A DNA stretch of 64,000 nucleotides from a virus (IMGVR_UViG_3300021387_000161:64001-128000), one strand, 5' to 3'. Shown: positions 28,275 to 54,470, counted from the stretch's first letter. Numbers and translations are program-made. Notes: generated from the letters alone by a model not told the origin.

Positions 28275-28284
28275 TAATTTAGCA
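28275..28284 (-). promoter_or_regulatory. Recurrent promoter-like motif TGCTAAATTA (candidate late promoter)
   Basis: Identical 10-mer, followed by TATA within 0-1 nt, also at 45361, 54461, 59389 (intergenic) and 14115 (intragenic). Confidence 0.6.
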
Positions 28285-28303: not shown

Positions 28304-29137
28304 TTATTTATACAATAACTTTTTAAGATCTATATATGCTCCTGTGCAAGCACTTGTTGGTGTGTTATGTAGTTTATTTTTATCTACTTTTATTCCTCTA
28401 TTCTCTACTATTTTCTTAGCTTCATCATATAAACCATTTTTTACAGCTTCATCAAACATGTTTTGGACTAAATGTATATTTGCTTTGGCTTGAGATTCAT
28501 ACAAATATTCATCATCATATTCTTCTTCGTCTCCAAAAGCACCTTCTAAATAATCTATTACATCATTAGCTAAATCTTCATCTCCATAATTATGTACTAT
28601 TTCGCTCCATACTTCTCTTAATGAAATATCATATGGGTATAAGCTACTATATTCTTTACAAACGTCATCAAAGAGTTCATAATCATAAGACTCATCTAAT
28701 CCACTTCCATTTCTGTTTCTACTATATATAATCCTGCCACCGTTTTGTTCAATAAAGTTTAATAGTTGAGATTTATCCATTGCTTTAACTTGTGATACAA
28801 GATGTATAAAGTCATCTGACGAAATACTCTGGCAATAAACTTCACCATAATCTGTATCATCATTAAATATTACAATACAATTTATAGAATTCAATACTTT
28901 ATTCTTATTTTCATCATATATCATTTTAGAACTTGAAAGTAATTTTATTTCTTTTCCATCACCTAATTTTATCCAATTTTTATCATTAAACTTTAACAAT
29001 CCATGTCTGTTATCCGCCATTGGCATTGCACCGTTTATATCTTCCATAAATGATTCATTCAATCTTCTACTCTTCTTTTTTTCTTGCTCTATGCCACTCA
29101 TAGCATATAATCTATCTGTAAATTCATTTAATTTCAT
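28304..29137 (-). CDS. Hypothetical protein, candidate internal head polyprotein
   Basis: 277 aa; LNE, LNES, LDES and LYES sites separate distinct segments. Confidence 0.5.
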   Translation of the reverse strand: MKLNEFTDRLYAMSGIEQEKKKSRRLNESFMEDINGAMPMADNRHGLLKFNDKNWIKLGDGKEIKLLSSSKMIYDENKNKVLNSINCIVIFNDDTDYGEVYCQSISSDDFIHLVSQVKAMDKSQLLNFIEQNGGRIIYSRNRNGSGLDESYDYELFDDVCKEYSSLYPYDISLREVWSEIVHNYGDEDLANDVIDYLEGAFGDEEEYDDEYLYESQAKANIHLVQNMFDEAVKNGLYDEAKKIVENRGIKVDKNKLHNTPTSACTGAYIDLKKLLYK

Positions 29138-29138
29138 T

Positions 29139-29669
29139 TTATTTCTCCCTAATTTGGAATATATAACTATTTATTTTTATACTTTTAGTATCAACGCCCA
29201 CGTTGTTAGGGAAAGATATATTATTATATCTCATCTTTGCAGATGTAATTATCTCCTTATTGGAAAAATTTACAACATCTAGTGTTACTGTCAATGGAAA
29301 ATTATCAAATTTATTAACTATATTTTTCCCTTCATACTGATTTATAGTACAAGTTATATTATATCTTATAGGTACCACATCATAATTTTTAGTGTATTCT
29401 ATAAATATATCACCCTGTGATGATTCTTTTATATTATTTGGATCTATATTATTGTCTATACAGAACTCTTCGGCTTCATCATAATAAGAAAAGGGTTCGG
29501 TAATTATTTGTGATGGATGCCTATCAGAAAAATTAGTTTTAGAAGAAAATTTAAACTTATCTTTTAGCTCTACTCCCTTAGGAAGACCATCAAGATTGTC
29601 TTTTATATTATATTTAATATTCTCATTTATATTTTTACTTTCAAGTAATAAATCGCTTAATATACTCAT
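29139..29669 (-). CDS. Hypothetical protein, candidate internal head protein
   Basis: 176 aa; N-terminal LLLES..INEN. Confidence 0.45.
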   Translation of the reverse strand: MSILSDLLLESKNINENIKYNIKDNLDGLPKGVELKDKFKFSSKTNFSDRHPSQIITEPFSYYDEAEEFCIDNNIDPNNIKESSQGDIFIEYTKNYDVVPIRYNITCTINQYEGKNIVNKFDNFPLTVTLDVVNFSNKEIITSAKMRYNNISFPNNVGVDTKSIKINSYIFQIREK

Positions 29670-30622
29670 TAATCTAAATCCATTTCTACTTGATCTTCAA
29701 ATTCTTTATCTGGCTTTGTAAACCTATATTCGTTATTAGGTTTAAACCTACCTTTTTCTCTCGCTAATTGATTAGCTTTACTAATCCTATCTCCTGTAAC
29801 TTTAGGTCCTTCTTCTGTATCTTCTATATATAATCCTGCTTTTGTTACTTTATCATATGTGGTATCAGTAACTTCCCCATACTCTTCTATATCACTATCT
29901 ACCATATCTTGATATTCATTTATTCTATCACCTAAATTAGAATCACCAGTTACATCTGTAATATCTAATTGAACTTCGGCATCAGGATCATATGGTTGCT
30001 GATATATTGCAGGATATATATATTTTTGATATAATCTTTCATCATGTTCTTTCATATATTCTATATAATTATATATAACAGAACTTACTTTTATTAACCA
30101 ACTACTATCACTTAATGCTAGATTTATATGTTTACAACCTGGACCTTTTGTATCATTAGGATTAGTTATATCAGATGGTCTTAATTCTGGAGCTCCTACT
30201 AATATATTATTTTTTGTAGCCCAATATTTACCTCTATATCTAAAATCAGGACAAGTACAGTTTATATAAACATTATCTGCGTTAAAAGCTCTTACAAGTG
30301 CCCTTGAAATTATTTTTCTATCTAAAGATACTCCACCGTTAAGGAAATTATGTAGTTCATCTAAAAAACCAGAAAAAGATATTCTTACTACGTATATATC
30401 TGTCTCACCTTTAACATCTATATCAACATCAATAATATCATCTTTAAATAATTTATTCATGTCAATAGAATTAAAGTTTTTTACAGATGCAGCAAGTCTT
30501 GAATACAGTCTTCTTTGGTATCTATTTTTTCCTTTAAACTGATTCCATATAACATAAGGATCACCAGTTTTTGATCTTGATAATAATTGACTTCTTTTAT
30601 CTTCTAATAGTATATTCTTCAT
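29669..30622 (-). CDS. SWIM zinc-finger protein
   Basis: CTCPDF...GCKHI (CxC-xn-CxH); N-terminal ILLED. Confidence 0.7.
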   Translation of the reverse strand: MKNILLEDKRSQLLSRSKTGDPYVIWNQFKGKNRYQRRLYSRLAASVKNFNSIDMNKLFKDDIIDVDIDVKGETDIYVVRISFSGFLDELHNFLNGGVSLDRKIISRALVRAFNADNVYINCTCPDFRYRGKYWATKNNILVGAPELRPSDITNPNDTKGPGCKHINLALSDSSWLIKVSSVIYNYIEYMKEHDERLYQKYIYPAIYQQPYDPDAEVQLDITDVTGDSNLGDRINEYQDMVDSDIEEYGEVTDTTYDKVTKAGLYIEDTEEGPKVTGDRISKANQLAREKGRFKPNNEYRFTKPDKEFEDQVEMDLD

Positions 30623-30635
30623 TACATTAATAAAT

Positions 30636-30660
30636 AAGGGTGAGTAATTTACTCACCCTT
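30636..30660 (-). terminator. Hairpin / probable terminator after the tail tube gene
   Basis: AAGGGTGAGTA-att-TACTCACCCTT, 11-bp perfect stem. Confidence 0.65.
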
Positions 30661-30673
30661 AAACTCTCTTTAA

Positions 30674-31243
30674 TTAGGTTGTATATTCTGGGTAAGCTCT
30701 ATCATATTCAATAGTAACTGTAATTTCTCTGCTACCATCTTGATCTGCTGACATATCTTGTTCAGATATACTTGAAATCCAACATCCTTCTAATTTCCAT
30801 GTTCTTACAACATGGTCATAGTCTGGTGGATATTCTAATAAAGTACAATCATACTTATAGTCTTTTTGTAATCCTACATGTTGATCTTTAGGATCGCCTG
30901 ACAGTGCTTGCCAAGCCATAAGTATATCTTTTGTTTCAGCGCCTATAAAATCATAACAAACAAGAGATCCAGATGAATAAGAAATAACTCCTGCGTATTT
31001 TACAGCTGTATTACCTCTTCTTACTTCAATTGCATTTTGTGAGAAATGAGGCACAGAAGTTCCTTTTACAGAAAGTCTTATATAATCACTTGCCTTAGGA
31101 AATGTTTTAGTATCACTACCCCAGGCTGTAATATTATTTAAGGCCGCAGGTATTACAAATTCAAAGTTATTACCTCTCTGAATTTCATAGATCTCTTTGT
31201 TGGCAGCAAAATGATGAGCACCTTGATCTTGTCTAATTGGCAT
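30674..31243 (-). CDS. Tail tube protein (T4 gp19-like)
   Basis: QRGNNFEF...VKYAG...YKYDCTL...RTWKLEGCW...ITVTIEYDRA; directly after sheath. Confidence 0.9.
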   Translation of the reverse strand: MPIRQDQGAHHFAANKEIYEIQRGNNFEFVIPAALNNITAWGSDTKTFPKASDYIRLSVKGTSVPHFSQNAIEVRRGNTAVKYAGVISYSSGSLVCYDFIGAETKDILMAWQALSGDPKDQHVGLQKDYKYDCTLLEYPPDYDHVVRTWKLEGCWISSISEQDMSADQDGSREITVTIEYDRAYPEYTT

Positions 31244-31256
31244 TATTTAATCCTCT

Positions 31257-33296
31257 CTATTCTACTTCTGCGACATCAACTTCATTGTTCTCTATTTGAA
31301 CAGTTAAATCAAATACTTCAACGGAGTTAATAGGTCTAATCTGTATATTGGCTAATATCATATATGCTGGAACAGGTTCACCTGATTCTGGATTTATATT
31401 GAATTTAGTTAATTTGTAATCACTTAATATACTATTAGAAATCATAGTATCAAGTATTGGTGAAATTAAACTCTTAAATTGAATCCAAAGAATATCTGTA
31501 TTTTGCTCAAACAGTAATTGTTGTGAAGCTTCGTATAAAGTCTTTTTAATATCCGAAACAACATTTCTTATATTTAAGAATGAAGTAGCTTTTGTACCAT
31601 TTCTATTATTTCTTAATGTTCTATTACCCCAGATACAATAACCATACTGTCTAATATATGTTATAGGGTTAATTGAAATTAATGAATAATCTGGAACTAA
31701 GTCTGATGGTACAGTTTGATATGAATCTGCTACATTATTTGTTAAAGCATAATTAGTATGTAATGAACCGAAGTAAGGTATTTTACCTCTAGATACACCA
31801 GCTACTGCTAACCATGGAGTTTGATTATTCTTAACCTGTGTTGCTAACGAAGATAAGTAAGCAAGTGATGCTGGCATAAATACATTAGGATTTTGACCCC
31901 TATCACCTGCTATTGAAGAATGAGTACATTCATACCATGGTGTAAACATAGCACCATATGAGGCAGTAATAGAGGACATACTAGAGAATTGATCTCTTAC
32001 TTGACTAATAACTGATAAAGTATCTGATTCATAAATTGTTCTACCAGGATTATCTGTATGGTCTATTAATGCTACTGAATCATGTCTTTCATAAGCCATA
32101 TTAATCATAGCTTCAGCTAATCCTGAGCTAACTTTAGTTACTCCAGTTACACTATCTGTTGATAATCTTCCATATTCAAAAGTAGGATAACCACCAGAAG
32201 TGATATATTTAATTGAATAATCACCCATACTATCGAATGAATAATCTGGATTATCTGGATTACCCATAAATCTTTTTGATAATCCAGTATACATGCTATC
32301 TAATGATTCATCAGCTCCAATATACCAAATAGTATCATCACTTGTTACATCTGCCAATGTTCTATACTGTATTGTAGGATTAGTACATTTTACGTATGAA
32401 TTATTTGAAAAATAATACCAACCCTGATCATATGGACTAATGTATGTATCAGTAGTACCACTTGACTCTGTAGTTGTTCCATACATTGCCAATGCTGAAT
32501 TAAAATCACTAGCTAATTCTACAATATCATAATTATTAGCACTGTTCATTTGTTCATAGTATACAGGCATACCTAATGATAATAGATATAAAGCATATCT
32601 ATATCCAGGATCCATATCACCTACAGCAAACATTGGTGATGTACTTTCTATTACTTGATAATAACTTTTTATAGAAGTTCCATCATTAGCAACGCCTATT
32701 TGTGTATCACTAGATTTATAAGGCGATGTAGTATTTCCACCTTCATACCAATTTTGTTCTAACGGACTTATGTTAGATTCATATACTAAGTTACCTGAAT
32801 CTGGACCATATGTTTCTATATATGTACTTCCATCTTCAACCGGCAAAGTAGAATAAGTTACAGTCCAACCGTCTGTATCAGAACCTGTAACTAAGAAATA
32901 ATTTATACCGTCTTCAGGCTCCCAATCTACACCTACTTCATCTGAAGAAATATCTACTAATCTGTAGAAATGTGATAATCCATCTTCGTTATTCCTATCA
33001 GCAAATTTAGTTAAATTCATTGGAGTATTATCTAACACTAATGCTCTATAATTAGGAATTGCATAGGTTGGAAATCCATTTGATGTTAATGTAGCTTCTG
33101 GATAACCTTGTTCTGACGTAAATGTTATAGGGCTATCGCCAAATAAATTTATAAATTGATATTTTGATGTAACTAATGTTGGAGTTCTAAACAAATCTGG
33201 ATTATTTCCAAATCCTGGGACGTATGCTACATCATAGGAAGATAGTGTTTCCACATTAAATGTATTATCTTCTTCTCGAATTATAATTCTTTCCAT
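31257..33296 (-). CDS. Tail sheath protein (T4 gp18-like)
   Basis: PWLAVAGVSRG...INPI...IWGNRTL...FLNIR...LLFEQN...IQIRPINSVE sheath C-terminal signature. Confidence 0.92.
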   Translation of the reverse strand: MERIIIREEDNTFNVETLSSYDVAYVPGFGNNPDLFRTPTLVTSKYQFINLFGDSPITFTSEQGYPEATLTSNGFPTYAIPNYRALVLDNTPMNLTKFADRNNEDGLSHFYRLVDISSDEVGVDWEPEDGINYFLVTGSDTDGWTVTYSTLPVEDGSTYIETYGPDSGNLVYESNISPLEQNWYEGGNTTSPYKSSDTQIGVANDGTSIKSYYQVIESTSPMFAVGDMDPGYRYALYLLSLGMPVYYEQMNSANNYDIVELASDFNSALAMYGTTTESSGTTDTYISPYDQGWYYFSNNSYVKCTNPTIQYRTLADVTSDDTIWYIGADESLDSMYTGLSKRFMGNPDNPDYSFDSMGDYSIKYITSGGYPTFEYGRLSTDSVTGVTKVSSGLAEAMINMAYERHDSVALIDHTDNPGRTIYESDTLSVISQVRDQFSSMSSITASYGAMFTPWYECTHSSIAGDRGQNPNVFMPASLAYLSSLATQVKNNQTPWLAVAGVSRGKIPYFGSLHTNYALTNNVADSYQTVPSDLVPDYSLISINPITYIRQYGYCIWGNRTLRNNRNGTKATSFLNIRNVVSDIKKTLYEASQQLLFEQNTDILWIQFKSLISPILDTMISNSILSDYKLTKFNINPESGEPVPAYMILANIQIRPINSVEVFDLTVQIENNEVDVAEVE

Positions 33297-33327
33297 TAAA
33301 TTTTAGTCTCCATTTTAATTGTAAGAA

Positions 33328-34035
33328 TTAAGAATTTTGTTGTTTCCAAGATGTACCTCCACAAATTGGACATACAGTAGGAGTTTCAAATGTTTGGTAT
33401 GCATATCCACAATCTAAACATACAAAATTCTTAACCTCGTATGTGTCATCTATCCTTATTTCAATTTCCGCGTTGCGGTGTTGTCTTACATCCCACAAAT
33501 AAGCATCGTCTATAGAAATTATAACAGACATAACTGTTAAATTACCTTCTATAAATCTTTCAGACATATTAGAATTATCATTTATAGTATTACTACCTAA
33601 TGAAATTCTAGCGGTATGTTTCATATCTGCGTCTGGAACGGAAACTGTCATTGCAGGATAATTAACTATGTTAAAAATCAAATTCCTCATCAGTATGTCT
33701 GCTTCTTCTGCTCTTCTTGCATATACATCTATTTGATATGTAAGAGATATTGGAATAGCATTTACTATCTTCATGGAATTCGTTTCTTCATCATATGATC
33801 TATCAATACCATCATATGATAGTGGCCTTCTTGTTCTTCCTTCATTTATTATTTCATAACCCATATCTCTACTGATAGATATTAAAGGTAACTTAATTTT
33901 AGAATCAGCATTTTCATCAGCTATGAGTTCAAATAATCTTCTTGTTTCTGAAGGCCCATAAACTTGAGTTTTAGAACTAGAAGTCCATTTTTTAAATTTT
34001 TCTACTAATGCTTTATCATATAAATATGATGACAT
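33328..34035 (-). CDS. Tail terminator / sheath stabiliser (gp15-like) with C-terminal rubredoxin-like ribbon
   Basis: KLPLISISR...IPISLTYQIDVY; upstream of sheath; C-terminal CLDC-x12-CPIC. Confidence 0.7.
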   Translation of the reverse strand: MSSYLYDKALVEKFKKWTSSSKTQVYGPSETRRLFELIADENADSKIKLPLISISRDMGYEIINEGRTRRPLSYDGIDRSYDEETNSMKIVNAIPISLTYQIDVYARRAEEADILMRNLIFNIVNYPAMTVSVPDADMKHTARISLGSNTINDNSNMSERFIEGNLTVMSVIISIDDAYLWDVRQHRNAEIEIRIDDTYEVKNFVCLDCGYAYQTFETPTVCPICGGTSWKQQNS

Positions 34036-34038
34036 TTA

Positions 34039-34608
34039 TTAATCTCCATCTAAAGTTAATTGACTTTCTAATTCTTCAATCTCTGTAGTCATTGGTCTAA
34101 TATTTTCTGTTCCTAATATATTAAGTTTTTCTGAATCAATTAATTCATCAATGTCTTTACCATTTGCTAATGATTCAAAATCATCAAAATATTCTGGAAC
34201 TATTTCACAAGTTATAGATGATGGATAAACTATTTCATTAACCATCTTAACTACTCTAAATAATCTTCCTTTACCATCATCTAGTCCACTTGGAACTATG
34301 AATAATGCTCCTTGTTGAAGTCCTGGTAAATCATAATCAACATGTATAAATGAAGAATTTTCATTTAACTCTGATACCCAACCTATTTTTCTTAATGTTT
34401 GCTGTGTTGGGTGTTCATCAAATATACACCCAACCATAATTGGATCTTCATAATTAGATTCTAATTCTCTATAAGTTGTATATGTTTTACCAGTTTTGGG
34501 GGCTCTGTATAAAACCCTTATCCCTAAGAGCTTACACATTTCTCTAAAATATTGTCTATTTATCTTTATATCTGGAGTTAATAACTGACCATATTTTTGG
34601 TTTTCCAT
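34039..34608 (-). CDS. Neck / head-closure protein (gp14-like)
   Basis: FREMCKLLGIRVLYRAP...; position upstream of the terminator gene. Confidence 0.6.
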   Translation of the reverse strand: MENQKYGQLLTPDIKINRQYFREMCKLLGIRVLYRAPKTGKTYTTYRELESNYEDPIMVGCIFDEHPTQQTLRKIGWVSELNENSSFIHVDYDLPGLQQGALFIVPSGLDDGKGRLFRVVKMVNEIVYPSSITCEIVPEYFDDFESLANGKDIDELIDSEKLNILGTENIRPMTTEIEELESQLTLDGD

Positions 34609-34629
34609 TTATTATCTCCTGTTGTTATG

Positions 34630-35223
34630 TTATTCACTTATAAATAACCATACTATTGGTTTGTTATTATCATCAAAACCAATAGGTTTAGGATATACCC
34701 AAAAGTTATTAGTAAGTAATTCTTTAGGAATATTTTCTTTATTAAGATATTTGTCGTCTATACTAGAAATATCACATAATGAGAATATATACTCATCCCA
34801 TAAATCAAGAATATTTACAGGCTTTATATCATCATTATAATCACCCATTGGATGTTTAATATAGTTTTGATACTGAAGAAGTGTTGGATCTATTATTTTT
34901 GTATTTTTACGAAAACCCTCACTAAAAGCTTTTTCTGAATTATTTATATGTAATACAGTATGATCACTACTAAATATGTTTACATAACCATCTGTAACAT
35001 CGAATGCTCCAATATAAACATGATTTATAATTTCTAAGCCTAATTTATTTACTATTTCAGGCTCATTATTCATTATATATTCACATACTTCTTCACATAT
35101 AGGACGTTGAAAATAGTCACTAGAAAATTCATCTGCAAGAGAAAATTCTAAATATTCCTTTATATTTTTATAATTGTTATCTTCTAGAATAAAAGCCTCA
35201 TGAATCGCGTTATTTATATCCAT
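34630..35223 (-). CDS. Hypothetical protein, candidate internal head protein
   Basis: 197 aa; N-terminal IHEAFILED. Confidence 0.45.
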   Translation of the reverse strand: MDINNAIHEAFILEDNNYKNIKEYLEFSLADEFSSDYFQRPICEEVCEYIMNNEPEIVNKLGLEIINHVYIGAFDVTDGYVNIFSSDHTVLHINNSEKAFSEGFRKNTKIIDPTLLQYQNYIKHPMGDYNDDIKPVNILDLWDEYIFSLCDISSIDDKYLNKENIPKELLTNNFWVYPKPIGFDDNNKPIVWLFISE

Positions 35224-35236
35224 GATTATTTCCTCT

Positions 35237-35779
35237 TTAAAGGTTGAAATGGTTTAACATATCATCGTATAACTGATCATGGTCGCTGATCCAATTAATT
35301 AAATCTGATAATTGATAATGTGCTAACTCTTCATCACAATACTTATCATTAACATCAATATGGAAGAAATTACATATATCCTCAAATGCTTGGTTATGAT
35401 CACTAAGCCAATCAATTAGTTCACGTTTATTAATATGATAAATAGAACGTGGTTGTCTTGCCTCATCAATCTTTGTTGACTCGTCCAATTCAGGAAAATC
35501 ATCTTTATAATGTTGACTATAGACATCCGTTATATCTTCTATGTTGCTACCTAGTAATTCAACACCCTCTAAGCCATGTTTTAATTCCCACTCAAACCCA
35601 GACATTATATCGTCTGGTTGTGAATTAGGTTCCTCGGAATCTGTATCATACATAATATCAAATGATATTTGTGCTACCCTCTTTGCTCCTTCAGTAAGTT
35701 TTACAGATTCTTTTCCTGTATTACTAGAATCTTCTTCCAATCTTAACGATTCCTGTAATATTTCTGTAATACTTTTCAT
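35237..35779 (-). CDS. Hypothetical protein, candidate internal head polyprotein
   Basis: 180 aa; LQES, LEED, LTEG, LDES and IDEA sites. Confidence 0.45.
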   Translation of the reverse strand: MKSITEILQESLRLEEDSSNTGKESVKLTEGAKRVAQISFDIMYDTDSEEPNSQPDDIMSGFEWELKHGLEGVELLGSNIEDITDVYSQHYKDDFPELDESTKIDEARQPRSIYHINKRELIDWLSDHNQAFEDICNFFHIDVNDKYCDEELAHYQLSDLINWISDHDQLYDDMLNHFNL

Positions 35780-35783
35780 TGTC

Positions 35784-37613
35784 TTATTTCCTTTTTACTG
35801 TACCGTAAACTCTTACAGATTCATTAAGATCATTCTTGCCCTTGTAATTATAATTTAATGATTCACAAACAAGTGATTTATCGTTTACAGAACAATTAAG
35901 TTTAAAAGTTTTTTTGCCCTTACTTATTTGCTTATTATAACCTTCAAGTTTTAATTTGCCATTTTCAGAAGTTTTAGGAGAGAAAACAAATTGAGTATCT
36001 TTTTCATTACCTGAATCAAATCCAATTTTACCTTCTATGATAAACTCTTTACTTTCATTTAAAGAAATATTAGAAGTTTTAAATGAAGTTACATTTTCGT
36101 AACATCTTTTAAGATAAGATTCACCTAATTCATCAAATGATTCCTCATCAAATTCCTCAAAATCTTCATCTGATTCAGGTTCTTCTAAATCAAAATCTTC
36201 GTCTGAAAATTCTTCTTCAGGAATTTCTTCTTCATCTTCTTCGTCATTTAATTCAACGGCATCTTCTACATCAAGCTCTGTATCAGGCTCGATAGGAGCT
36301 ATCATTTCTTCACCTTCAAAAGGTTCTTCTACTGATTCATCTTCTTTAGGAGAAGTTTCAACAACTACACCACCATCTTCTTTAGTGGTCATTGTGATAT
36401 TTTCATCGTCTGTATTTATTGAAACATCTTCAATACCTTCTTCAAGCTCTTTCTTATCTTCACAGCCTTCTGAGAAAGTATCTTGGATCTTATCTCCAAT
36501 CTTACCACCTACAAAACTACCAACAGCACCACCAACAGGACCACCTATTGCAGTTCCTACTGCCTTTCCAGCAAGTTTACCGCCAATAGTTCCTTCAACA
36601 CCTTCTTCAACTTTTTCAGCTGGAGTAATTAATGAAACCATTTCTTTCTGTTCATCTGCAGGAGCTCTTAAGAAAATCTCATCAACAGGTTCTGTTTCAT
36701 CACCATACTTTGACAAAATAGCATACATCTTATCAAAACCAGGATTATTAGCATTATTTGCATCATCATGGTACTTTAGAAATGTATCTACAAGACCTTC
36801 TTCCATAATTTCTGGGTCACCACATTCTTCTAAAGATTCATCTAATTTATAAGAATATTCAACTTTCTTACCTTTTCTTAGTTTTTTATCTTCTCTTTTT
36901 AATTCGGCTATAGTGGCTTTAGCTTCTCTTTCTGTTTTTACCCTTGCTATTTCACCATCTACATCTGATTCTACTACCCATGGAGTACCTTGCTTCTTGG
37001 CTTCATTTAACTCTGTGTACTTTGGCCCACGAATCTCATCATTGCCTTCTAAATCATCAACAGCAGCAATTGGTCCATCAGCACCATTAATTTCTTCATC
37101 CCCACGAAGTTCTTTTACTTCATCAGCTTTAAGACCTTCTTCTAATTCTTCGTCATCTTCAGGTTCTTCGGCTTCTATTTCAATGTCAACTTCTTCTTCC
37201 TCAGGAATTTCTCCAGTTTCAACATCTTCAAGATCAACATCTTCTTCTTCCTGATAAGGTTTTACTTCACCTATAATAGTATAACCTTCATTTGACATAC
37301 AATAAGGACATTCTATTTCTGTGCAACATAATCCATCTTCATCTTCTGTAATATCTTCTTTATTAAAGAATACATTACTATGACATACATTACAATCTAA
37401 TATTACTTTGCCTATATAGGACTGCTTTAAATCTTCTTTAGCTTCAGCTTCTAAATCATATACATCAGAAATTAATTCATCATCCTCTGCAGCATTAATA
37501 GTATCTAAAAAAGATTCTGTATTTTCAGGATTAATAGCATCTAATGAAAGTTCTTCCACATCTTCAGTTAAATAAACTTGTTTGAATGCCTCTTGAATAA
37601 AACTATTATTCAT
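35784..37613 (-). CDS. Acidic protein with zinc ribbon and glycine zipper; candidate prohead core / internal polyprotein
   Basis: 609 aa, very E/D-rich; CNVC...CPYC; GGKLAGKAVGTAIGGPVGGAVGSFVGG; many LxE/EEG sites. Confidence 0.5.
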   Translation of the reverse strand: MNNSFIQEAFKQVYLTEDVEELSLDAINPENTESFLDTINAAEDDELISDVYDLEAEAKEDLKQSYIGKVILDCNVCHSNVFFNKEDITEDEDGLCCTEIECPYCMSNEGYTIIGEVKPYQEEEDVDLEDVETGEIPEEEEVDIEIEAEEPEDDEELEEGLKADEVKELRGDEEINGADGPIAAVDDLEGNDEIRGPKYTELNEAKKQGTPWVVESDVDGEIARVKTEREAKATIAELKREDKKLRKGKKVEYSYKLDESLEECGDPEIMEEGLVDTFLKYHDDANNANNPGFDKMYAILSKYGDETEPVDEIFLRAPADEQKEMVSLITPAEKVEEGVEGTIGGKLAGKAVGTAIGGPVGGAVGSFVGGKIGDKIQDTFSEGCEDKKELEEGIEDVSINTDDENITMTTKEDGGVVVETSPKEDESVEEPFEGEEMIAPIEPDTELDVEDAVELNDEEDEEEIPEEEFSDEDFDLEEPESDEDFEEFDEESFDELGESYLKRCYENVTSFKTSNISLNESKEFIIEGKIGFDSGNEKDTQFVFSPKTSENGKLKLEGYNKQISKGKKTFKLNCSVNDKSLVCESLNYNYKGKNDLNESVRVYGTVKRK

Positions 37614-37628
37614 TAAATTAATCTCCTA

Positions 37629-38363: not shown

Positions 38364-38383
38364 TATTTTACCTTAATAAATAT

Positions 38384-38920
38384 TTATGGTTGTGTTTGTT
38401 CTTCAGGAGCAGCATTTACTGTGATAGTGAAGCTGTCTTCAAAGTCATATGCTGAAACAACAACTTCAGTGATGTCAGTTGTTAATACTGTACCTGCTTC
38501 TGGAGAAGTTGTATACTCATTATACGCAAGAAGATCAGTTACTTCTTTCGTACCATCAGTTCCAATAACAGTAACAACCATTCCTGTTAAATCTAATTCT
38601 TCACCTGCAGTATAGACTGTCTTTGTAGGAGGAGTGGTAACTTCGATTGCTGTCATTGTAATTTCTGGTTCAGATTCTTCTTCAATCTCTTTACCAATAA
38701 TCTGTGTATCACCAATAAATACATTTACAGCTTTATTATCAGATACTCTATAAATTCCACCTTTACCATCATCTTTATAAGTATCTTTTTCTACTAATTC
38801 TAATTCGGTGCCTTCAGCATCTTTATAAGTTAATTGTACATCGGATTGTGTAGGTTGAGTACCAGTTGCATTACCAAAAAGATGTCTTACACCTTCAACT
38901 TTCTTTTCATATACTAGCAT
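38384..38920 (-). CDS. Ig-like (Big_3-type) domain protein, probable virion decoration
   Basis: IEVTTPPTKTVYTAGEELDLTGMVVTV...SFTITV. Confidence 0.75.
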   Translation of the reverse strand: MLVYEKKVEGVRHLFGNATGTQPTQSDVQLTYKDAEGTELELVEKDTYKDDGKGGIYRVSDNKAVNVFIGDTQIIGKEIEEESEPEITMTAIEVTTPPTKTVYTAGEELDLTGMVVTVIGTDGTKEVTDLLAYNEYTTSPEAGTVLTTDITEVVVSAYDFEDSFTITVNAAPEEQTQP

Positions 38921-38948
38921 TAATTATCTTAACCTTTCACTAGTTAAT

Positions 38949-39704
38949 CTATTCACCAAAATTATACATTAAATCTTCAGCTAATGCTTCTACTAATTTT
39001 TGTGCATACATATCGTAAGAAGTAGTGCCTCCATCTTCTTTACACCAATCTAAATTATATTCTGGTATTTCTGAAGCAACCACTTGTGCGATATTAGTAA
39101 TAAACTCATTATCTAATTTATCTCTTAAAAAATTAACTACTTTGTTATAAATATCATCTTCAATATCTTCAGTTAATTCTTTAGATTCATTTTTGATACG
39201 CTCGTCATGATACTTTTTAGCATCATCAAATACACCACCAGGTTTATAAACATAAATAGAAGTTTGAGGTTTATAGTAGGATCTATTTTTGCCAAACGAG
39301 TTCTTCCATTCATTACATGCCGCTCTTGCTTCTTCCTTTGAATCAAATAAGGTACCATTTAAATCATTACCACCGACGAATCCCCCTCGTGTAGTAACAA
39401 TATATTTTTTCCCTGATTCATCCTCGTTTAAAACTTCATTTAAATCTTCTGAATGACCTTCATCCTCACCATTATCTATAGAATAGAAATATCCATCTTT
39501 TCTTGCCTGATTAATATCTTCTTTTGAACCCATGAATCTATACAAGCATTCATCGCCTTGTCTACCCATTTTTTGACATTCAAGATTATATTCAGCAGCA
39601 AACTCAAATGGATCTTCTTCAGTTTGACCCCACCATTCATCTACATATGATTCATTAAGTTTATATTTTCTTTCTAAACTTTCTACTAAGTTTCTCATTC
39701 TCAT
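38949..39704 (-). CDS. Hypothetical protein, candidate internal head polyprotein
   Basis: N-terminal MRMRNLVESLERKYKLNES, similar to the adjacent gene; internal LNEVLNED and LTED. Confidence 0.5.
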   Translation of the reverse strand: MRMRNLVESLERKYKLNESYVDEWWGQTEEDPFEFAAEYNLECQKMGRQGDECLYRFMGSKEDINQARKDGYFYSIDNGEDEGHSEDLNEVLNEDESGKKYIVTTRGGFVGGNDLNGTLFDSKEEARAACNEWKNSFGKNRSYYKPQTSIYVYKPGGVFDDAKKYHDERIKNESKELTEDIEDDIYNKVVNFLRDKLDNEFITNIAQVVASEIPEYNLDWCKEDGGTTSYDMYAQKLVEALAEDLMYNFGE

Positions 39705-39707
39705 TTT

Positions 39708-40811
39708 TTATATCCAATCTATTGTTGAATTAAATATATTACTTGTTTCATTTTCTACTTTATCACGATAATTATCAAGACGGTTTAACTCATATTGGGC
39801 AATATATTGTAAATCACTAGTTTTTCTATCATCTGTTCTATTAGGATCATTAACAATCCTACCTACAGATCTTACTATATCTGTATATACACTCACATAA
39901 TTACGTAACAGAGAAGCAATATCATTAACTCTTCCGTAGTCATTATAAGAGCTTATATCGTGATCACCTGAATCATCACTAGGTAATATATTAATATTTG
40001 ATGTGTAATTACCTAATTCTTGATATGCATCTTTTATATAAATCTCATGTTCTTTTAAGAGTTGAGGAAGTTTATTAACTTTTAATTTATTTAATTCATC
40101 TGCATATCTTTCGATAGAAGGAATTTGTTCATAGCCTGATTTATCAACGCCTGAACGCCAGTTTTTTCTTCTAAATAAATCTCTATTATCTCTATCAAAA
40201 TATTTACCAGATCTATTAGAACTTTTATCAACATTTGCTCTACTGCGTTGCTTGTCCATAGAAAAATTATTCGGATCATTTCCGTCAATATAGGCAAAAG
40301 ATTTACATTGTGGTAATAATTTATCTATGTCATAAGCACCAAATGTTTTTCTACCACCAAGTTTTTCATCATCATTAAAACCTGGAGCGTATACTTTCCC
40401 ATTATCAAATAATAATATAGGAATATTAGGAGATTGCATCCTAGGATCATTAGATGATTTTGGAACAGGTCCTTCTATAACTTTTACAGTATCTAAACTT
40501 ATACCCCTATCTCTGAATTTAGAAAATAAAGATGGATCTGGATCATATGGATCTAAATTTCTGTATTCCGGCTTGTCACCAAACTCAGGATTTTTCTTGT
40601 CATAATCACCCCTTCTTAACTTCTGTCTAGGCTCATGTGCATTGCCACCAAGATCTCTTTGGACAAGATTACCCGTGTTAGAATATTTTGTGGTTAACAA
40701 TCTTTTTTCTAGCCAATCTGGCATATCATCACTTATCTTTTCTGTTAATGATCTACTTTCATGTAGTTTATATTTATTTTCAAGACTTTCAGTTAAATCT
40801 TTTATTCTCAT
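39708..40811 (-). CDS. Hypothetical protein, candidate internal head protein
   Basis: N-terminal MRIKDLTESLENKYKLHESRSLTEK. Confidence 0.5.
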   Translation of the reverse strand: MRIKDLTESLENKYKLHESRSLTEKISDDMPDWLEKRLLTTKYSNTGNLVQRDLGGNAHEPRQKLRRGDYDKKNPEFGDKPEYRNLDPYDPDPSLFSKFRDRGISLDTVKVIEGPVPKSSNDPRMQSPNIPILLFDNGKVYAPGFNDDEKLGGRKTFGAYDIDKLLPQCKSFAYIDGNDPNNFSMDKQRSRANVDKSSNRSGKYFDRDNRDLFRRKNWRSGVDKSGYEQIPSIERYADELNKLKVNKLPQLLKEHEIYIKDAYQELGNYTSNINILPSDDSGDHDISSYNDYGRVNDIASLLRNYVSVYTDIVRSVGRIVNDPNRTDDRKTSDLQYIAQYELNRLDNYRDKVENETSNIFNSTIDWI

Positions 40812-40825
40812 TATTTATACCTTTA

Positions 40826-41359
40826 TTAAAGTTCTGCTTCTTCGGAGTCATTAGATGTAGGTTGTCTAAATAAATGTTCCTTATACCAAGGTATTTCATT
40901 CTTTTTACATTTTAATCTAGTACCACCTGTTCTTTCTTCAGCATATATAATAACATCATCATTACTACCAAATATTTTTTCTCCAAGTATTCTTACAGAA
41001 TTAGGTAAAAATACCTGTTTAAGTTGTGGACAATCACTAAAAGCGTTATCCCCTATAGTTGATACTGAATCTCCTATATTCACTGAAGTCAAGTTAGCAC
41101 AATTATAAAAAGCTCTATTTCCTATTTTCGTTATATGATCAGGTATAGTTATTGTATCAAACTCAGCACCATTAAACATACCAGCAGGTATTGATTCAAT
41201 ATAGTTAAATACATCTATACCATTCTCCATTAAGAATTGCATTATACGACCTAACATATTACTCTGAGTATTTTTACAAAACCCAACTATATCATTATTT
41301 TTTAAATATTGTTTACCGTCTGTTATTTTCTGCTTTTCATCGTCTGTTAATTTTATCAT
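40826..41359 (-). CDS. BspA-type leucine-rich repeat protein (LRR_5)
   Basis: ITIPDHITKIGNRAFYNCANLTSVNIGDSVSTIGDNAFSDCPQLKQVFLPNSVRILG. Confidence 0.9.
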   Translation of the reverse strand: MIKLTDDEKQKITDGKQYLKNNDIVGFCKNTQSNMLGRIMQFLMENGIDVFNYIESIPAGMFNGAEFDTITIPDHITKIGNRAFYNCANLTSVNIGDSVSTIGDNAFSDCPQLKQVFLPNSVRILGEKIFGSNDDVIIYAEERTGGTRLKCKKNEIPWYKEHLFRQPTSNDSEEAEL

Positions 41360-41371
41360 TTATTACTACCT

Positions 41372-42322
41372 TTAAAAATCAAATATTCTTGATTGTTTCT
41401 TTCCCTTTAAATGTTTTATTAAGTCTAAAGATCTTAATCCGCCTTTAAATAATAACCATACGGCACCAGGAACTTTTATTTCTGGTGCTTCTGCTACATC
41501 ACCGAAGTGATCGAAATCAGCATCAGTCATTACTATAACATTATCAGGTTTCGTTGACATGATATGATATATAAGATCAGCTCCTGCACCAGTACCCCTC
41601 TCTTGTCTAGCTGGCTCTGGAGTATCGTGGATATGATTTGCAAAATAATACAAATCAATTTCTATCTCTCCACGATCAACATAGTTATTTAATATACCTA
41701 TTGCTTCTTCGCCTAGTTTAATATCATTTGAACCCCAACTTGCTGATTGGTCAAAGTAAACATTTATTTTAGGAATCTTTGTATTATCATCAATCATACG
41801 TCCAGGTCTTATAATTCCTGAACCTTCGTAAGACGGATCTTCTCTTTTATAAGTTCTATCTCTTATTTCTTTAACTTGATTAGCAATAAATCTATTTAAT
41901 GACTGTCTAAACTTTTGCATAGAAGAAGAATACTTCTTCCGTTCTTTTTCACTTGCACTCTTTTTATCTCTATATTTTTTCTTTGTTTCTTTATCAAGAT
42001 GATGTTTATCTTCAGATGATATTTCATCTGCCATAGAATCATCACCAAGCATATTTTTTATATCATCTAATCTTTGTTGACGCTCTTCTTCTGTTTCTTC
42101 TTCATACTCATCATCTTCTTCTTTTTCTTTTTCTATTTGAGCATCACGTTCTTCTTGTTCTTTATTTTGAAACTCCTCATCACCTTTATCACCTATTTGA
42201 GGAGTTGTATTACCAATTTTAACTAATTGTGTACCATCAAATATGTACATATCTCCAGTAGCATCATCTACATAAATATGTACATCTCTTTCATTGGTAT
42301 TTTGTTTTACATTATCTGGCAC
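41372..42322 (-). CDS. vWA-like domain protein (MoxR partner)
   Basis: MIDAS-like VYFDQSASW, GTG and VIVMTDAD; RTYKR...IRPG preceding the domain as in DUF2201-type proteins; GTG start with SD AGAGGAG. Confidence 0.75.
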   Translation of the reverse strand: MPDNVKQNTNERDVHIYVDDATGDMYIFDGTQLVKIGNTTPQIGDKGDEEFQNKEQEERDAQIEKEKEEDDEYEEETEEERQQRLDDIKNMLGDDSMADEISSEDKHHLDKETKKKYRDKKSASEKERKKYSSSMQKFRQSLNRFIANQVKEIRDRTYKREDPSYEGSGIIRPGRMIDDNTKIPKINVYFDQSASWGSNDIKLGEEAIGILNNYVDRGEIEIDLYYFANHIHDTPEPARQERGTGAGADLIYHIMSTKPDNVIVMTDADFDHFGDVAEAPEIKVPGAVWLLFKGGLRSLDLIKHLKGKKQSRIFDF

Positions 42323-42324
42323 TT

Positions 42325-42972
42325 TTAAACTCCTCTTGTAGGTACAAACTGACTACCGTCCCACTCGAAAGTTTTTCCAGTAGATATGTCCCTAAATAAT
42401 TGACCCTTATCTGGTACTTTAAATTTTGGACGAGGTTTAGAATCATTTTTTTGATTGTTAGGCGGTTGTTGATTACTTTGATTATTAGATTGTTGCTGAT
42501 TGCTTTGATCTGATGTTTGTTCTTGACCATTTTCATTAGAATTATCTGAATTTGCGTTGGAACTTTCTGATGAAGCATCTCCACTATCACCCTGGTTAGA
42601 ACTACCATCTTCTTGATTATTTTGAGAATTACCTTGTTGAGATCCTTGTTGATTATTATCATTTGATGATTGTTGGCCACCACTTTGGTTATTAGATTGT
42701 TGATTACCCTGGTTGCCACCACCTGATGATTGTTTCCCATTCCCACCAGCACTAGAAGATTGTGATTGATTAGATTGCTTGTTATCTTTATCCTCACCGC
42801 TACTAGAGCTACTTTGGTTATCTTTTGAATCTTCGCCATTAAGACTACCAAAGTTTGATTTCTTTAACTCATAAGGATTTCCATTCATATCTAGAAATGT
42901 TTGAAGATCTTGTATGGACCCATGATGGATATGAGTTCCTTTTAACTTATTTCTAACTTCATCCATATCCAT
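42325..42972 (-). CDS. Q/N/S/G-rich low-complexity protein
   Basis: 215 aa; long polar low-complexity tract; short folded-looking C-terminus; SD GAGGAG. Confidence 0.6.
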   Translation of the reverse strand: MDMDEVRNKLKGTHIHHGSIQDLQTFLDMNGNPYELKKSNFGSLNGEDSKDNQSSSSSGEDKDNKQSNQSQSSSAGGNGKQSSGGGNQGNQQSNNQSGGQQSSNDNNQQGSQQGNSQNNQEDGSSNQGDSGDASSESSNANSDNSNENGQEQTSDQSNQQQSNNQSNQQPPNNQKNDSKPRPKFKVPDKGQLFRDISTGKTFEWDGSQFVPTRGV

Positions 42973-43668
42973 TTAAAATCTCCTCTCAAGCTCATCCAAA
43001 ATTTCTTGTGATGAATATATAGTTCCATCACTACTTATAAATACATCTACACCAAATGATTTAGCAACATCTGCAACGGTTTTATCGTGTTCTGAAAGCA
43101 TATAACCAGAAATAACATTATCTTCTGGTTTTTGATTCTGCCTTTCTTGTCTCAACTTACCAAACATTTCTTCTACAGATAAATCTACCCAATCAGGATG
43201 ATCATCTTCTGTTACTAATCCAGATAATGTTCTACCATTTAACATAATGTTTCTAATGGTTTTTTTATCCCTTTCAGTATAACCTCTATTAGAAATTTCA
43301 TAATCTGCTGCAATATTAAAATCTACATTTTTATGTAAATCTTTTTTAAGCTCGTTTATAGTTAAATCATCTAAATCATCTGGATCTAATCCTCTATCTC
43401 TTGCAAGTTTATCTAATAATCTTTTCTCATGTCTTAAATAGTCATGAAGTATCTCATGTCTTATTATAACAGATATTTGATTCTCATCTAACCCTCTATT
43501 AGCAACAATTACGCCTCTGTTAGGATCAAGATAAGCTACTACACTTGGATCACTTGTAAAGTTAAACTCAAATTTTGAAAATATCTTTGCGTATGTAGGG
43601 TACCCATCTGAAGCTAAAACTCTACCAAGGTAATTCTTTGCTATTTTTTCTTCTTTTGTCATAGACAT
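42973..43668 (-). CDS. Zincin-like metallopeptidase (DUF2201 N-terminal type)
   Basis: HEILH (HExxH) followed by NIAADYEIS. Confidence 0.8.
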   Translation of the reverse strand: MSMTKEEKIAKNYLGRVLASDGYPTYAKIFSKFEFNFTSDPSVVAYLDPNRGVIVANRGLDENQISVIIRHEILHDYLRHEKRLLDKLARDRGLDPDDLDDLTINELKKDLHKNVDFNIAADYEISNRGYTERDKKTIRNIMLNGRTLSGLVTEDDHPDWVDLSVEEMFGKLRQERQNQKPEDNVISGYMLSEHDKTVADVAKSFGVDVFISSDGTIYSSQEILDELERRF

Positions 43669-43685
43669 TATATAACTACCTCATA

Positions 43686-44789
43686 TTACAAAAGATCTGA
43701 GATTTGATCGTATATACTCTTCTGAGCTCTCTGTGCAGCTTTTGCCGCCGCAAATGGATTTTCATCACCATACTTCAATGCATCGTTAGCTTTATCATCT
43801 ACATCTACATAGTCAGATAATATATCTTCCACTACATTTAATTTTTCTGGATTACAGAAACCACTCCAGTTATCAAGTAATGATTCCTTTGTACCATCAG
43901 TAGCAGTTAATAAACGTGAAAAAGATCTAGGATTAAGAACTGGAATACCTTCGTCTTGTGCAATTTCTTCCTCTTCATCACCATCAAATTCAAATCTTGG
44001 ATCTGATAATAACTTTTTAGCTAATTCTAATCTTCCTCTTATTACAGGAATTCTTTCAGGTTTACCAAGCTCTTTTAATTTTTCAATTTGTTTACCAAAC
44101 TTATACTCAAAGTGTTCAATACTTTCCTGAGGATTAGATTCTACTTCTACTGTTTTAAATCTTGATCTCATCGGGTTATCTAAGCTGTTAACTTCATTAC
44201 CTGATTTATTAGGATTTATAGCAGCGATAGTAAATAAAAATCCTTTTAATAATCTTTTACCGGAAGGTTGTGTCTGGTCATTTATAACATGGTCATTAAT
44301 TAATGTTAATAAAGCACCAGCTACATCTTTTCTAGCTCTGTTTAATTCATCTAAGAATAATACAGAATTAGGTTTATCTAATTCATCAAATTCTGTATTT
44401 GATAATTTAGTAACTGTGTTAGTAGCGTTACCTTCATCATCATATCTTCTTGCTACTACACCACCTAAATCTGAAGGATCCATAGTTTTAGCATCTTTTT
44501 CTACTAAGTTAATGCCTCTTTGTTGTGCCCATTTTTTAACGGTATAGGTTTTTCCTGTACCACCTCTTCCAACAAATAGTACATTAACGCCACCAATCTC
44601 ACCAAAGTCATTGGCTTCTCTAGCAGCTTCTAATGCCTTATCTAATTCTCTACCCATCATTCCAAGAGGTTCTTCGCCGTCTATAACTTGGCCTGCTTTT
44701 ATATCTTTAGCAGCAGATTTAACTTGACCCCCATATTCTTTAGCTGCTTGTTCTATAGTAGCCTCATTTAAAGCTTTGTTAATCTTCAT
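43686..44789 (-). CDS. MoxR-like AAA+ ATPase
   Basis: Walker A GRGGTGKT, Walker B LFLDELNRA, AAINP, LDNPMRSRF, NPRS. Confidence 0.85.
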   Translation of the reverse strand: MKINKALNEATIEQAAKEYGGQVKSAAKDIKAGQVIDGEEPLGMMGRELDKALEAAREANDFGEIGGVNVLFVGRGGTGKTYTVKKWAQQRGINLVEKDAKTMDPSDLGGVVARRYDDEGNATNTVTKLSNTEFDELDKPNSVLFLDELNRARKDVAGALLTLINDHVINDQTQPSGKRLLKGFLFTIAAINPNKSGNEVNSLDNPMRSRFKTVEVESNPQESIEHFEYKFGKQIEKLKELGKPERIPVIRGRLELAKKLLSDPRFEFDGDEEEEIAQDEGIPVLNPRSFSRLLTATDGTKESLLDNWSGFCNPEKLNVVEDILSDYVDVDDKANDALKYGDENPFAAAKAAQRAQKSIYDQISDLL

Positions 44790-44797
44790 TAAAATCC

Positions 44798-45313
44798 TTA
44801 TTCCGAATCTTTCTGTTTTAATAATTCTGCTTTTATTTTACTAACTGGGGTATTCTTAAGAGAACTTACTCGTTTAAGTCTCCAATCTTCATGTTTGAGC
44901 ATATCCTCTGTGATTATTTCATCTTTATCAAATCCTGCCCAGTTCTTGTAATATTCTACTACTCTTTGTAAATGTTCATCTGGATCCCAGCCACGTCTCT
45001 TTGGTTCTGACATCTTTTTCTCACACCCCTCTAAGGATTCATTTATATTATCTTCTTTTCCTAATACTATTGCTTTCGCTTTAGCAGGAGGTATATCTTG
45101 CTGTAATAACTCGTAAAATTCATCCATAGCTTCTTCGTTTGTTTTTTCTACTGGTAATTCGTTTGAATCTATCATATCTTCAACTTCACCAGCAGATATT
45201 TTTGCATCGGCTATATCAGTGGATAAATCTTCATTTAATATTTTATTACTATCTTGTAATTCAATATTGTATTTATTTTTAAGGCTTTTATAAATAGCAC
45301 TTTCAAAACTCAT
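44798..45313 (-). CDS. Hypothetical protein, candidate internal head protein
   Basis: 171 aa; ILNED and INES sites; first gene after the TGCTAAATTA motif. Confidence 0.45.
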   Translation of the reverse strand: MSFESAIYKSLKNKYNIELQDSNKILNEDLSTDIADAKISAGEVEDMIDSNELPVEKTNEEAMDEFYELLQQDIPPAKAKAIVLGKEDNINESLEGCEKKMSEPKRRGWDPDEHLQRVVEYYKNWAGFDKDEIITEDMLKHEDWRLKRVSSLKNTPVSKIKAELLKQKDSE

Positions 45314-45360: not shown

Positions 45361-45370
45361 TAATTTAGCA
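45361..45370 (-). promoter_or_regulatory. TGCTAAATTA motif (candidate late promoter)
   Basis: Just downstream of a terminator and upstream of the 45313-to-neck/tail gene run. Confidence 0.6.
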
Positions 45371-54460: not shown

Positions 54461-54470
54461 TAATTTAGCA
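54461..54470 (-). promoter_or_regulatory. TGCTAAATTA motif (candidate late promoter)
   Basis: In tandem with a sigmaA promoter upstream of the surface-protein gene. Confidence 0.55.

Follow-up and report, generated by a model that had tools for sequence, protein, structure and literature searches.

The region at positions 28304-45313 of a viral genome segment raises the question of whether a set of otherwise unrelated proteins, encoded there among neck and tail genes, are polyproteins cut by the protease that matures the head. The window, meaning the whole 64,000-nucleotide stretch that was analysed, spans bases 64001-128000 of an IMG/VR virus record (IMGVR_UViG_3300021387_000161) that is complete at 145,522 bp and has terminal repeats; the source genome has about 30% G+C, and its minus strand carries nearly all genes. 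An earlier note on this DNA had described about ten open reading frames (ORFs) with a short leader bearing the motif [LIFV]xE, several of them punctuated by the same motif, and had proposed that a gp21-type protease cuts them there in the prohead. Each motif string that it quoted was found at the ORF to which it had been assigned, all on the minus strand. Our analysis indicates that the proteins are probably prohead-protease substrates in a capsid-cargo system of the T4 kind that has been expanded into polyproteins. An effector role for the modules carries considerably less confidence, and docking, cleavage, head retention, ejection and host function are steps that we infer.

Relatives used for comparison were a complete 144.9-kb genome (G1), whose capsid protein is 84% identical, and genome fragments (G2-G4); P-numbered proteins are metagenomic homologues and L-numbered items are genomic loci. 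ORFs are named by their lower coordinate, lengths are in amino acids (aa), and arrows mark predicted cuts. The three ORFs that had been called punctuated are the following (leader classes are described below).

38949..39704, minus strand: 251-aa polyprotein with a class-1 leader to LNE18↓S and joints LNE90↓VLNE94↓D and LTE179↓D
28304..29137, minus strand: 277-aa polyprotein with a 28-aa leader (MKLNEFTDRLYAMSGIE...RRLNE28↓S), modules to LDE149↓S and to LYE214↓S, then a C-terminal module
35237..35779, minus strand: 180-aa protein with a leader to LTE30↓G, module 1 to LDE100↓S and IDE106↓A, then module 2

ORF 38949 consists of a leader, a 'WWGQ' module (aa 19-90), a middle module and a C-terminal module. 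A phmmer search against 1.84 billion cluster representatives recovered the 74-aa WWGQ module in 48 proteins of 82-1065 aa, where it occurred at any position. In about 38 of these 48 proteins, the flanks of the module and the other joints were of the Glu type, typically ESLNE↓S. In eight (P0037, P0044, P0046, P0047, P0049, P0051, P0053 and P0054), every joint read (I/V/L)-(K/Q)-D↓(S/A/G), for example DSSIKD↓G. These D-type proteins came from an unrelated phage type with E217/PB1-like head modules, in which loci L035, L036 and L044 encode Phage_portal_3, Mu_F and a PF09950 capsid protein. L036 also encodes a DUF2213 protein that matches phrog_530, 'head maturation protease' (7e-52); the protease role of DUF2213 is a PHROG annotation only, and a literature search on this domain yielded no functional study. 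In P0044 itself, passenger modules are attached to a DUF2213 domain. On L036, the sequence x-(K/R)-D↓S was found after the DUF2213 domain, again near the C-terminus of that protein, and at residue 13 of the capsid protein (SLRD↓S). The polyprotein gene of the D-type lineage adjoins the Phage_Mu_F gene. The E-type polyprotein P0052 is encoded on a 300-kb contig two genes from the S77 and Gp23 genes, where the capsid site is FMNE↓A; the contigs of P0047 and P0037 were too short to reach a protease gene. The same module therefore has joints matched to the resident head protease, as cleavage sites predict and as composition or simple spacers do not. That the joint follows the head-protease family, as read from these sequences, is the strongest argument for regarding the joints as cleavage sites.

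The earlier note had also placed a gp21-type protease and a capsid protein containing FLNEA in the window. Both were identified, and FLNE↓A aligns with the cut site of T4 gp23.

54572..55876, minus strand: major capsid protein, Gp23 type, 434 aa (PF07068 5.2e-29; phrog_138)
55919..58705, minus strand: 928-aa protease-passenger-scaffold fusion (PF03420 Peptidase_S77, 33.0 bits against a cut-off of 27; phrog_207 'head maturation protease', 7.8e-31)

By alignment, ORF 55919 is assigned to Peptidase S77, the family of the T4 gp21 prohead protease. Structure 5jbl_A aligns to aa 40-175, and His75 (GELxHP) and Ser131/132 (SSRG), which we take to be the catalytic residues of gp21, are the same residues in T4 gp21 and the L040 protease when the three are aligned. 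The gp21-type protease occupies about aa 1-175; acidic passenger modules take up roughly the next 450 aa, and a coiled-coil scaffold forms the C-terminal part. The 700-aa extension of the protease holds aromatic-rich passenger modules framed by polyprotein-type joints, with six LNE sites; FNE↓S, FKE↓SLLKE↓G and FQE↓SLNE↓S delimit the modules, and several LNE↓S lie in the scaffold part. ORF 54572 is likewise assigned to the Gp23-type capsid proteins, with a predicted N-terminal propeptide whose boundary is homologous to T4 E65↓A66: its FLNE50↓A51 (FLNE↓AFDSS) shares alignment columns with FLTE65↓A66 of T4 gp23, which loses a 65-residue propeptide (PMC5694885). A maturation cut after E50 is predicted, and this site is the reference for the joint motif; it is kept in G1-G4 and in the 300-kb phage L040. 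The portal is of the T4 type (PF07230, 1e-45; Portal_T4).

Two side observations concern the head genes. The capsid gene is split in G3 and G4 (L029:17154-19504 and L031:14530-16976) into a 59-63-aa N-terminal ORF that starts just before FLNE↓A, an inserted ORF of 238-276 aa, and the remaining capsid; this layout points to insertion of an intron or homing endonuclease, an event also annotated for the capsid gene of Bacillus phage SP-15. A gene for phage ribosomal protein bS21 (PF01165, 1.6e-11) lies at 59085-59342 on the minus strand, between the portal and protease genes, and the 300-kb relative has a bS21 gene in the matching position (L040:5211-5423).

The joints have the consensus (E/D)(S/D)L(N/H/T)E↓(S/A), which is longer than LxE. 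Ser was present at P1' in 20% of candidate sites compared to 6% of background sites, and P3 was Leu in 44% of sites and Ile, Val or Phe in the remainder. The strict joint L[NHTD]E[SA] occurred 15 times in 4,203 aa of candidates and 7 times in 40,926 aa elsewhere, a density about 20-fold higher in a candidate set that was picked post hoc. Segment shuffling across related phages had been named as a check on the proposal, and module junctions were confirmed in metagenomic homologues of all three punctuated ORFs, in which relatives gain, lose and permute modules exactly at the named sites. Across the 38949 homologues P0002-P0012, modules were inserted, deleted or swapped at the joints; P0002-P0009 kept the leader, WWGQ and C-terminal modules, with middle modules inserted, deleted or replaced, and P0005 equals P0004 minus one module, the junction falling exactly at EDLNE↓SKELNE↓S. 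The 28304 homologues P0014-P0016 kept the leader, and modules were added or exchanged at LNE↓S, at LDE↓S and at the position of LYE↓S. P0063 carries both 35237 modules in reversed order, P0064 combines a 35237-type leader and module 2 with a different module, and LTE↓G and (I/L)(D/E)E↓(A/V) stay ahead of the same modules in the 35237 relatives. G2_9598 is an in-frame fusion of 40826-like and 39708-like proteins through YLYE↓KYKLKE↓A, in which the 39708 leader is internal; 42973 and 41372 are also fused in G2. Borders of internal homology blocks lay within 3 aa of a motif in 45% of 150 cases compared to 25% expected (maximum 39% in 2000 randomisations; p < 0.0005), a proportion to which the ends of high-scoring segment pairs contribute in part by being attracted to mutually similar joints. 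Many of the predicted substrates string together 2-4 or more modules, with as many as about ten in relatives, and have a mosaic multidomain architecture among virion and late genes. Their module sets are hypervariable between close relatives and occupy gain/loss slots.

Leaders were present on a wider set of ORFs, which includes the following.

39708..40811, minus strand: 367-aa protein, body conserved in G1 and G2; class-1 leader MRIKDLTE↓SLENKYKLHE18↓S
35784..37613, minus strand: 609-aa very acidic protein (29% D+E); class-2 leader MNNSFIQE8↓AFKQVYLTE17↓D, a Cys4 motif and LNE↓A/S sites
34630..35223, minus strand: 197-aa orphan; class-2 leader MDINNAIHE9↓AFILE14↓D
44798..45313, minus strand: 171-aa acidic ORF; leader-like SLKNKYNIE..KILNE28↓D and a conserved C-terminal module after NINE92↓S
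58713..59075, minus strand: 120-aa orphan between the portal and protease genes; class-1-like leader MSRIEE↓SLYRVTE↓V

Three leader families, 10-28 aa long, were found on otherwise unrelated proteins here and in related phages. In 62,575 ORF pairs whose bodies had no detected homology, the N-terminal windows reached an ungapped score of 40 or more for 11 pairs, compared to 2 and 0 for two internal control windows, and nearly all of the top pairs fell in two families (class 1 and the 28-aa leader). Class 1, with the consensus R-(I/L)-(V/T)-E-S-L-x-x-K-Y-x-L-x-E↓(S/A/D), is carried by 38949, 39708, G1_91543 and three tandem, unrelated G2 ORFs, and more weakly by 58713 and G3_12664; matches to its regular expression were found only at ORF starts. 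ORFs 38949 and 39708 have only the leader in common, over aa 1-19 (68% identity). The 28-aa leader MKLNEF.DRLYAMGGIE...LNE↓S is carried by 28304 and by G1_102007. These two proteins align over aa 1-22 only (73% identity), and their bodies are unrelated. The G1_102007 body recurs behind a class-1 leader in G2_21289 and P0008, so leaders and bodies assort independently. The third family, class 2, (F)I(Q/H/N)EAF..L(T/L)E↓(D/S), is carried by 35784, 34630 and a P-loop kinase outside the window. The start of this kinase (G1_39606) is MLYDFINEAFILE↓S, and the 34630 leader resembles it as well as the leaders of 35784 and G1_96564; on 35784 homologues the class-2 leader is kept as far as a 300-kb phage. 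Leader codons differ synonymously and the upstream DNA is unrelated, which indicates that the leader peptide is what is conserved. The T4 internal proteins IPII and IPIII both open with MKTYQEFIAE↓A (PMC9026906), and leader portability is, by analogy, a hallmark of the T4 capsid-targeting sequence (CTS). The same logic has been applied to SPN3US gp53 and gp54, which have identical, CTS-like N-termini (PMC5694885).

Two enzymes in the same genome but outside the window also have such N-termini. A DUF2828/DUF7788 protein of 503 aa (L038:13176-14687, minus strand) starts MKHFMDYIEE↓A, and a P-loop kinase-like protein of 307 aa (L038:15974-16897, minus strand), the G1 orthologue of which has a class-2-like leader, starts MIYDYIVE↓ANLLE↓SEELLE↓D. 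Enzymes distant from the structural genes may also be addressed to the head.

The proposed mechanism is as follows. Late proteins would bear a short N-terminal leader from at least three families, and the leader would dock them on the assembling core, of which the 928-aa protease-scaffold fusion, itself with passenger modules, would be the main component. After the Gp23-type shell closes round this core, the gp21-type serine protease would cut after Glu at hydrophobic-x-Glu↓small-residue sites, namely capsid FLNE50↓A51, the leader ends and the stereotyped joints between modules. The freed folded domains of about 6-15 kDa would remain in the head and most likely exit with the DNA at infection. 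Because the joints are nearly identical peptides, they may also serve as recombination points, which would explain the differing module sets in the same gene slots of related phages.

Several observations weigh against this reading, and most concern how far the loose motif can be trusted. [LIFV]xE occurs in the first 10 residues of 12 of 20 ORFs of 28304-45313, a region chosen post hoc, and of 25 of 138 ORFs elsewhere in the 145.5-kb genome (Fisher 2e-4). About 1.75 occurrences of the motif are expected per 100 aa, and it falls within the first 10 residues in 18% of unrelated ORFs. The enrichment anticipated by the earlier note failed to appear after correction for composition, as the three-residue motif was significant in no candidate (best p about 0.03-0.1); we therefore rejected per-ORF enrichment as the main evidence. 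The extended motif [LIFV]xE[SADG] gave composition-corrected p values of 0.002-0.02 for 35784, 38949, 35237, 28304, 55919 and two ORFs beyond the window, none of which survives correction for 158 ORFs. The sheath and hub, said to be leaderless, both open with the loose motif (MERIIIRE↓E and MENSRIVE↓N); these N-terminal motifs are conserved in relatives, and neither protein can be a prohead substrate. The loose [LIFV]xE rule is thus explained mostly by composition, and with these two controls failing, motif density alone cannot carry the claim. The covariation between joint and protease comes from one shared module, four D-type contexts of one phage type and a DUF2213 protease known from annotation, and the border test has the attraction between joints as a partial source. 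The candidate genes sit among neck and tail genes, away from the head genes, and their modules are acidic, unlike the basic T4 internal proteins. In tblastn searches, 39708, 35784, 38949 and a 499-aa carrier had no match in cultured phages, and the modules occur in no cultured phage of the collection. The expectation that sites fall in disordered linkers was upheld for the joint after the WWGQ fold: in an AlphaFold2 model of the module built from 23 sequences, residues 1-58 were confident (beta-alpha-beta-beta-alpha) and residues 59-74, which contain DEGHSEDLNE, were disordered. It fared less well for full-length 38949, where the model was poor (predicted local distance difference test score 51.5) and tests site exposure only weakly; its low-confidence stretches (1-23, 74-97 and 151-177) include the leader and the first joint, which is suggestive of both being unstructured.

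Membership is not equally firm for all ORFs. The following were also considered.

43686..44789, minus strand: MoxR-type AAA+ ATPase (AAA_5/AAA), 367 aa, weak candidate; 46-aa clade-specific N-terminal extension with ALNE9↓A
29669..30622, minus strand: 317-aa conserved protein, uncertain member; SWIM-like CxC...CxH motif and N-terminus MKNILLE7↓DKRSQLL
29139..29669, minus strand: 176-aa orphan, weak candidate; MSILSDLLLE10↓SKNINE16↓N, motif only
40826..41359, minus strand: 177-aa BspA-type leucine-rich repeat (LRR) protein (PF13306, 4e-21)
genome ORFs 131218-132717 and 132740-134376: further carriers just past the window in the same genome

The case is strong for 28304, 38949, 39708, 35784 and the passenger part of 55919, moderate for 35237, 34630, 44798 and 58713, and weak for 29139, 43686 and 29669. 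Of the roughly ten unrelated ORFs credited with leaders, several do belong to leader families, but 29139, 29669 and 43686 have little beyond the loose motif. Short leaders ending in (L/I)-x-E and a small residue were found on 28304, 34630, 35237, 35784, 38949, 39708 and 58713, and in the three weak candidates this feature is present but trivial. The 35784 leader is conserved in G1, G2, L040 and in P0039, P0043 and P0055, the last three of which have the WWGQ module inserted into a 35784-type body. ORFs 35237 and 34630 are absent from G1 and G2. ORF 44798 has only aa 99-168 in common with G1_87125, where the module follows KLKE↓A, and G3 has, at the position of 58713, a non-homologous ORF opening MSRIVE↓ALNKLCE↓D. 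Homologues of 43686 in rV5-like phages align from aa 47 only, and its extension diverges with the motif position kept (VLNE↓A in G1, RIVE↓S in G2). The 29669 homologues in SP-15 and LIS04 start MNLFE↓L and MILFE↓M, so that what is conserved in its N-terminal motif could be a cut site or just the N-terminus as such. ORF 29139 had no homologue in G1-G4 and belongs to no leader family.

Some of these proteins have further features. Residues 341-375 of 35784 form a hydrophobic glycine zipper that resembles segments of tape-measure and ejection proteins (weak PHROG matches) and may be a membrane-active piece; akin to it are hydrophobic NP..AAA modules in the relatives' polyproteins P0006-P0008. The 609-aa protein was rejected as a tape measure on account of its 29% acidic residues and of an 803-aa ORF behind the hub, the place of the tape-measure-like gene in SP-15 and LIS04. 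The SWIM-like zinc finger of 29669 (CTCPDF...GPGCKH) marks a virion-module protein common to SP-15, LIS04, HSE3 and GXN1, the gene for which lies after the tube gene here and among neck genes in SP-15 and LIS04.

The alternative that best withstands these data is that cutting does take place in the prohead, with the proteins serving as disposable filler of the core or scaffold, cleared before DNA entry like T4 gp22, gp67 and gp68, with nothing useful delivered to the host. We consider this unlikely, and equally live as an anti-defence or takeover role for the modules. The protease-scaffold fusion holds the same modules and joints, the proteins are acidic and scaffold-like, and multiple cuts are known to help the clearance of core proteins (PMC5694885). 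Searches for effector domains also came up empty. Pfam and PHROGs applied to all candidates returned only an AAA domain, LRR, the glycine zipper and a sub-threshold LPD26 match (E 0.01, 29669); Pfam applied to the polyproteins and large relatives found no effector or enzymatic domain and no peptidase except the DUF2213 domain of P0044, with one relative giving a sub-threshold LysM match. A Foldseek search of the WWGQ module model against the PDB gave nothing below E 0.1 and only a generic fold, and no module matched a known effector family in Pfam, PHROGs or Foldseek. The predicted pieces, however, are folded 60-120-aa domains, sizes that T4 retains in its head (IPI-III, 8-20 kDa; PMC9026906), and hypervariable module sets in gain/loss slots are typical of arms-race cargo, not of an essential scaffold.

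Rather improbable, in our judgement, is that nothing is cut and that leaders and joints are conserved spacers or recombination joints, their likeness to the capsid site being a by-product of a composition rich in E, L, N and S. The loose motif is indeed compositional, near-identical joints would by themselves promote in-frame shuffling, and the genes are located in a tail-gene block. Yet composition leaves unexplained the switch from x-N-E↓S to x-K-D↓S with protease family while the module is unchanged. Nor is it explained why the same short peptide marks the capsid propeptide boundary, why leaders occur only at ORF starts, or why they are conserved as peptide and not as DNA. That a permissive three-residue motif in a Glu-, Leu-, Ile- and Asn-rich proteome mimics leaders and punctuation by chance fits the expected motif density and the non-significant per-ORF tests and is viable for 29139 and 43686 individually, but for leaders and joints it is largely refuted, and as a whole scarcely credible, given the leader families on non-homologous proteins (11 high-scoring pairs compared to 0-2 in controls), the border test and the module junctions at all three punctuated ORFs in independent metagenomic relatives.

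Cleavage by the head protease remains the preferred reading of leaders and joints. A more tentative proposal, which we regard as possible, is that it represents a general form of cargo loading across many uncultured tailed phages. Leader-addressed polyproteins of small domains would be cut by whichever protease matures the head, and this protease and the joint code would evolve in step (x-N-E↓S for S77, x-K-D↓S for DUF2213). A second role of the joints would be in recombination, as sites for swapping injected domains at a high rate, and these domains would plausibly be counter-defence or takeover factors.

The region itself also includes sheath, tube, hub and Ad2-type adaptor genes. The nearest cultured phages are distant (Bacillus SP-15 and HSE3, Listeria LIS04 and Streptococcus GXN1; capsid identity 27-30%), and a near-identity DNA search of the region against cultured phages gave zero matches. 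Exact copies of TGCTAAATTA lie on the coding strand at 45361-45370 and 28275-28284 (minus strand), in the intergenic gaps flanking the 17-kb block, and further exact copies were found at 54461, 59389 and 14115, upstream of other gene blocks; with one mismatch allowed, the count was no higher than in shuffles. TGCTAAATTA may be a phage late promoter, in which case 45313-28304 would form a single transcription unit. The block 40826-44789 (minus strand) encodes the MoxR AAA+ ATPase, proteins of 231 aa (with weak HNH or metalloprotease PHROG matches), 215 aa and 316 aa, and the BspA-type LRR protein; the 215-aa protein (42325-42972, minus strand) is of low complexity and rich in S, N, Q and G. The block is fused into two large ORFs (648 and 540 aa) in G2. 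About 6.4 kb past the window end, a 297-aa DUF3990 protein (4.5e-22) is encoded at L037:6376-7269 (minus strand), adjoining polyprotein carrier genes and upstream of the terminase.

If the joints are truly cut, one late gene could deliver a swappable set of small proteins at DNA entry, and the repertoire of injected phage proteins would be greatly enlarged beyond T4 IPI and Alt. The motif would make it possible to predict, for uncultured phages and with nothing but sequence, which proteins are packaged in the head and where their mature forms start and end, and the link between joint and protease family would offer a way to read protease specificity from genomes. The T4 CTS is already used to load foreign proteins into capsids, and the leaders and joints described here could serve the same use.

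Among known systems, the polyvalent proteins of phages and conjugative elements (Iyer, Burroughs, Anand, de Souza and Aravind 2017; PMC5512222) are also multidomain, heavily shuffled products of late or virion genes that are predicted to be packaged, delivered with the DNA and processed into domains. They differ in having recognisable enzymatic or effector domains and predicted self-processing by embedded zincin-like or other peptidases (PMC5512222), whereas here the modules are small orphans in which no such domain or peptidase was detected, and processing is predicted to fall to the head-maturation protease, at a short joint that recurs. MuF-fused effectors (MuF polymorphic toxins, Mu gp30 and SPP1 gp7) likewise combine a head-addressing part with variable cargo, but their MuF domain of about 100-300 aa stays attached, whereas removal is predicted for the short leader here; the window contains no MuF domain. 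In the giant phages phiKZ, 201phi2-1 and SPN3US, many head proteins are cut after Glu, often more than once, by a prohead protease related to gp21, and the identical N-termini of the diverged paralogues gp53 and gp54 of SPN3US have been read as CTS-like (PMC5694885). P3 is small there (A/S/G-x-E) and propeptides are mostly longer than 100 residues (PMC5694885), neither of which holds for the proteins of this window; P3 here and in T4 is L, I, F or V, and the leaders have 10-28 residues. A bead-on-a-string arrangement with a fixed joint is not described for those phages, and our literature search found no description of such cargo cut by a head protease.

The closest likeness is to T4 IPI, IPII, IPIII and Alt. 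Both systems combine a portal of the T4 type with a protease of the gp21 type and a capsid protein of the Gp23 type; in both, a short leader that ends in hydrophobic-x-Glu↓small residue is common to otherwise unrelated proteins, and the known or predicted mature products are small (about 8-20 kDa in T4). For T4, the CTS has been suggested to provide evolution with a way of bringing varied proteins into the head (PMC9026906). The candidates showed no homology to IPI, IPII, IPIII or Alt in Pfam and PHROG searches. The T4 internal proteins have one leader family and single, basic bodies, whereas here there are several leader families and acidic module chains with a fixed joint, and protease, scaffold and passenger modules form one fusion protein. 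By analogy, the scheme is mechanistically that of the T4 CTS and gp21 processing, carried by proteins that are not members of the T4 internal protein family.

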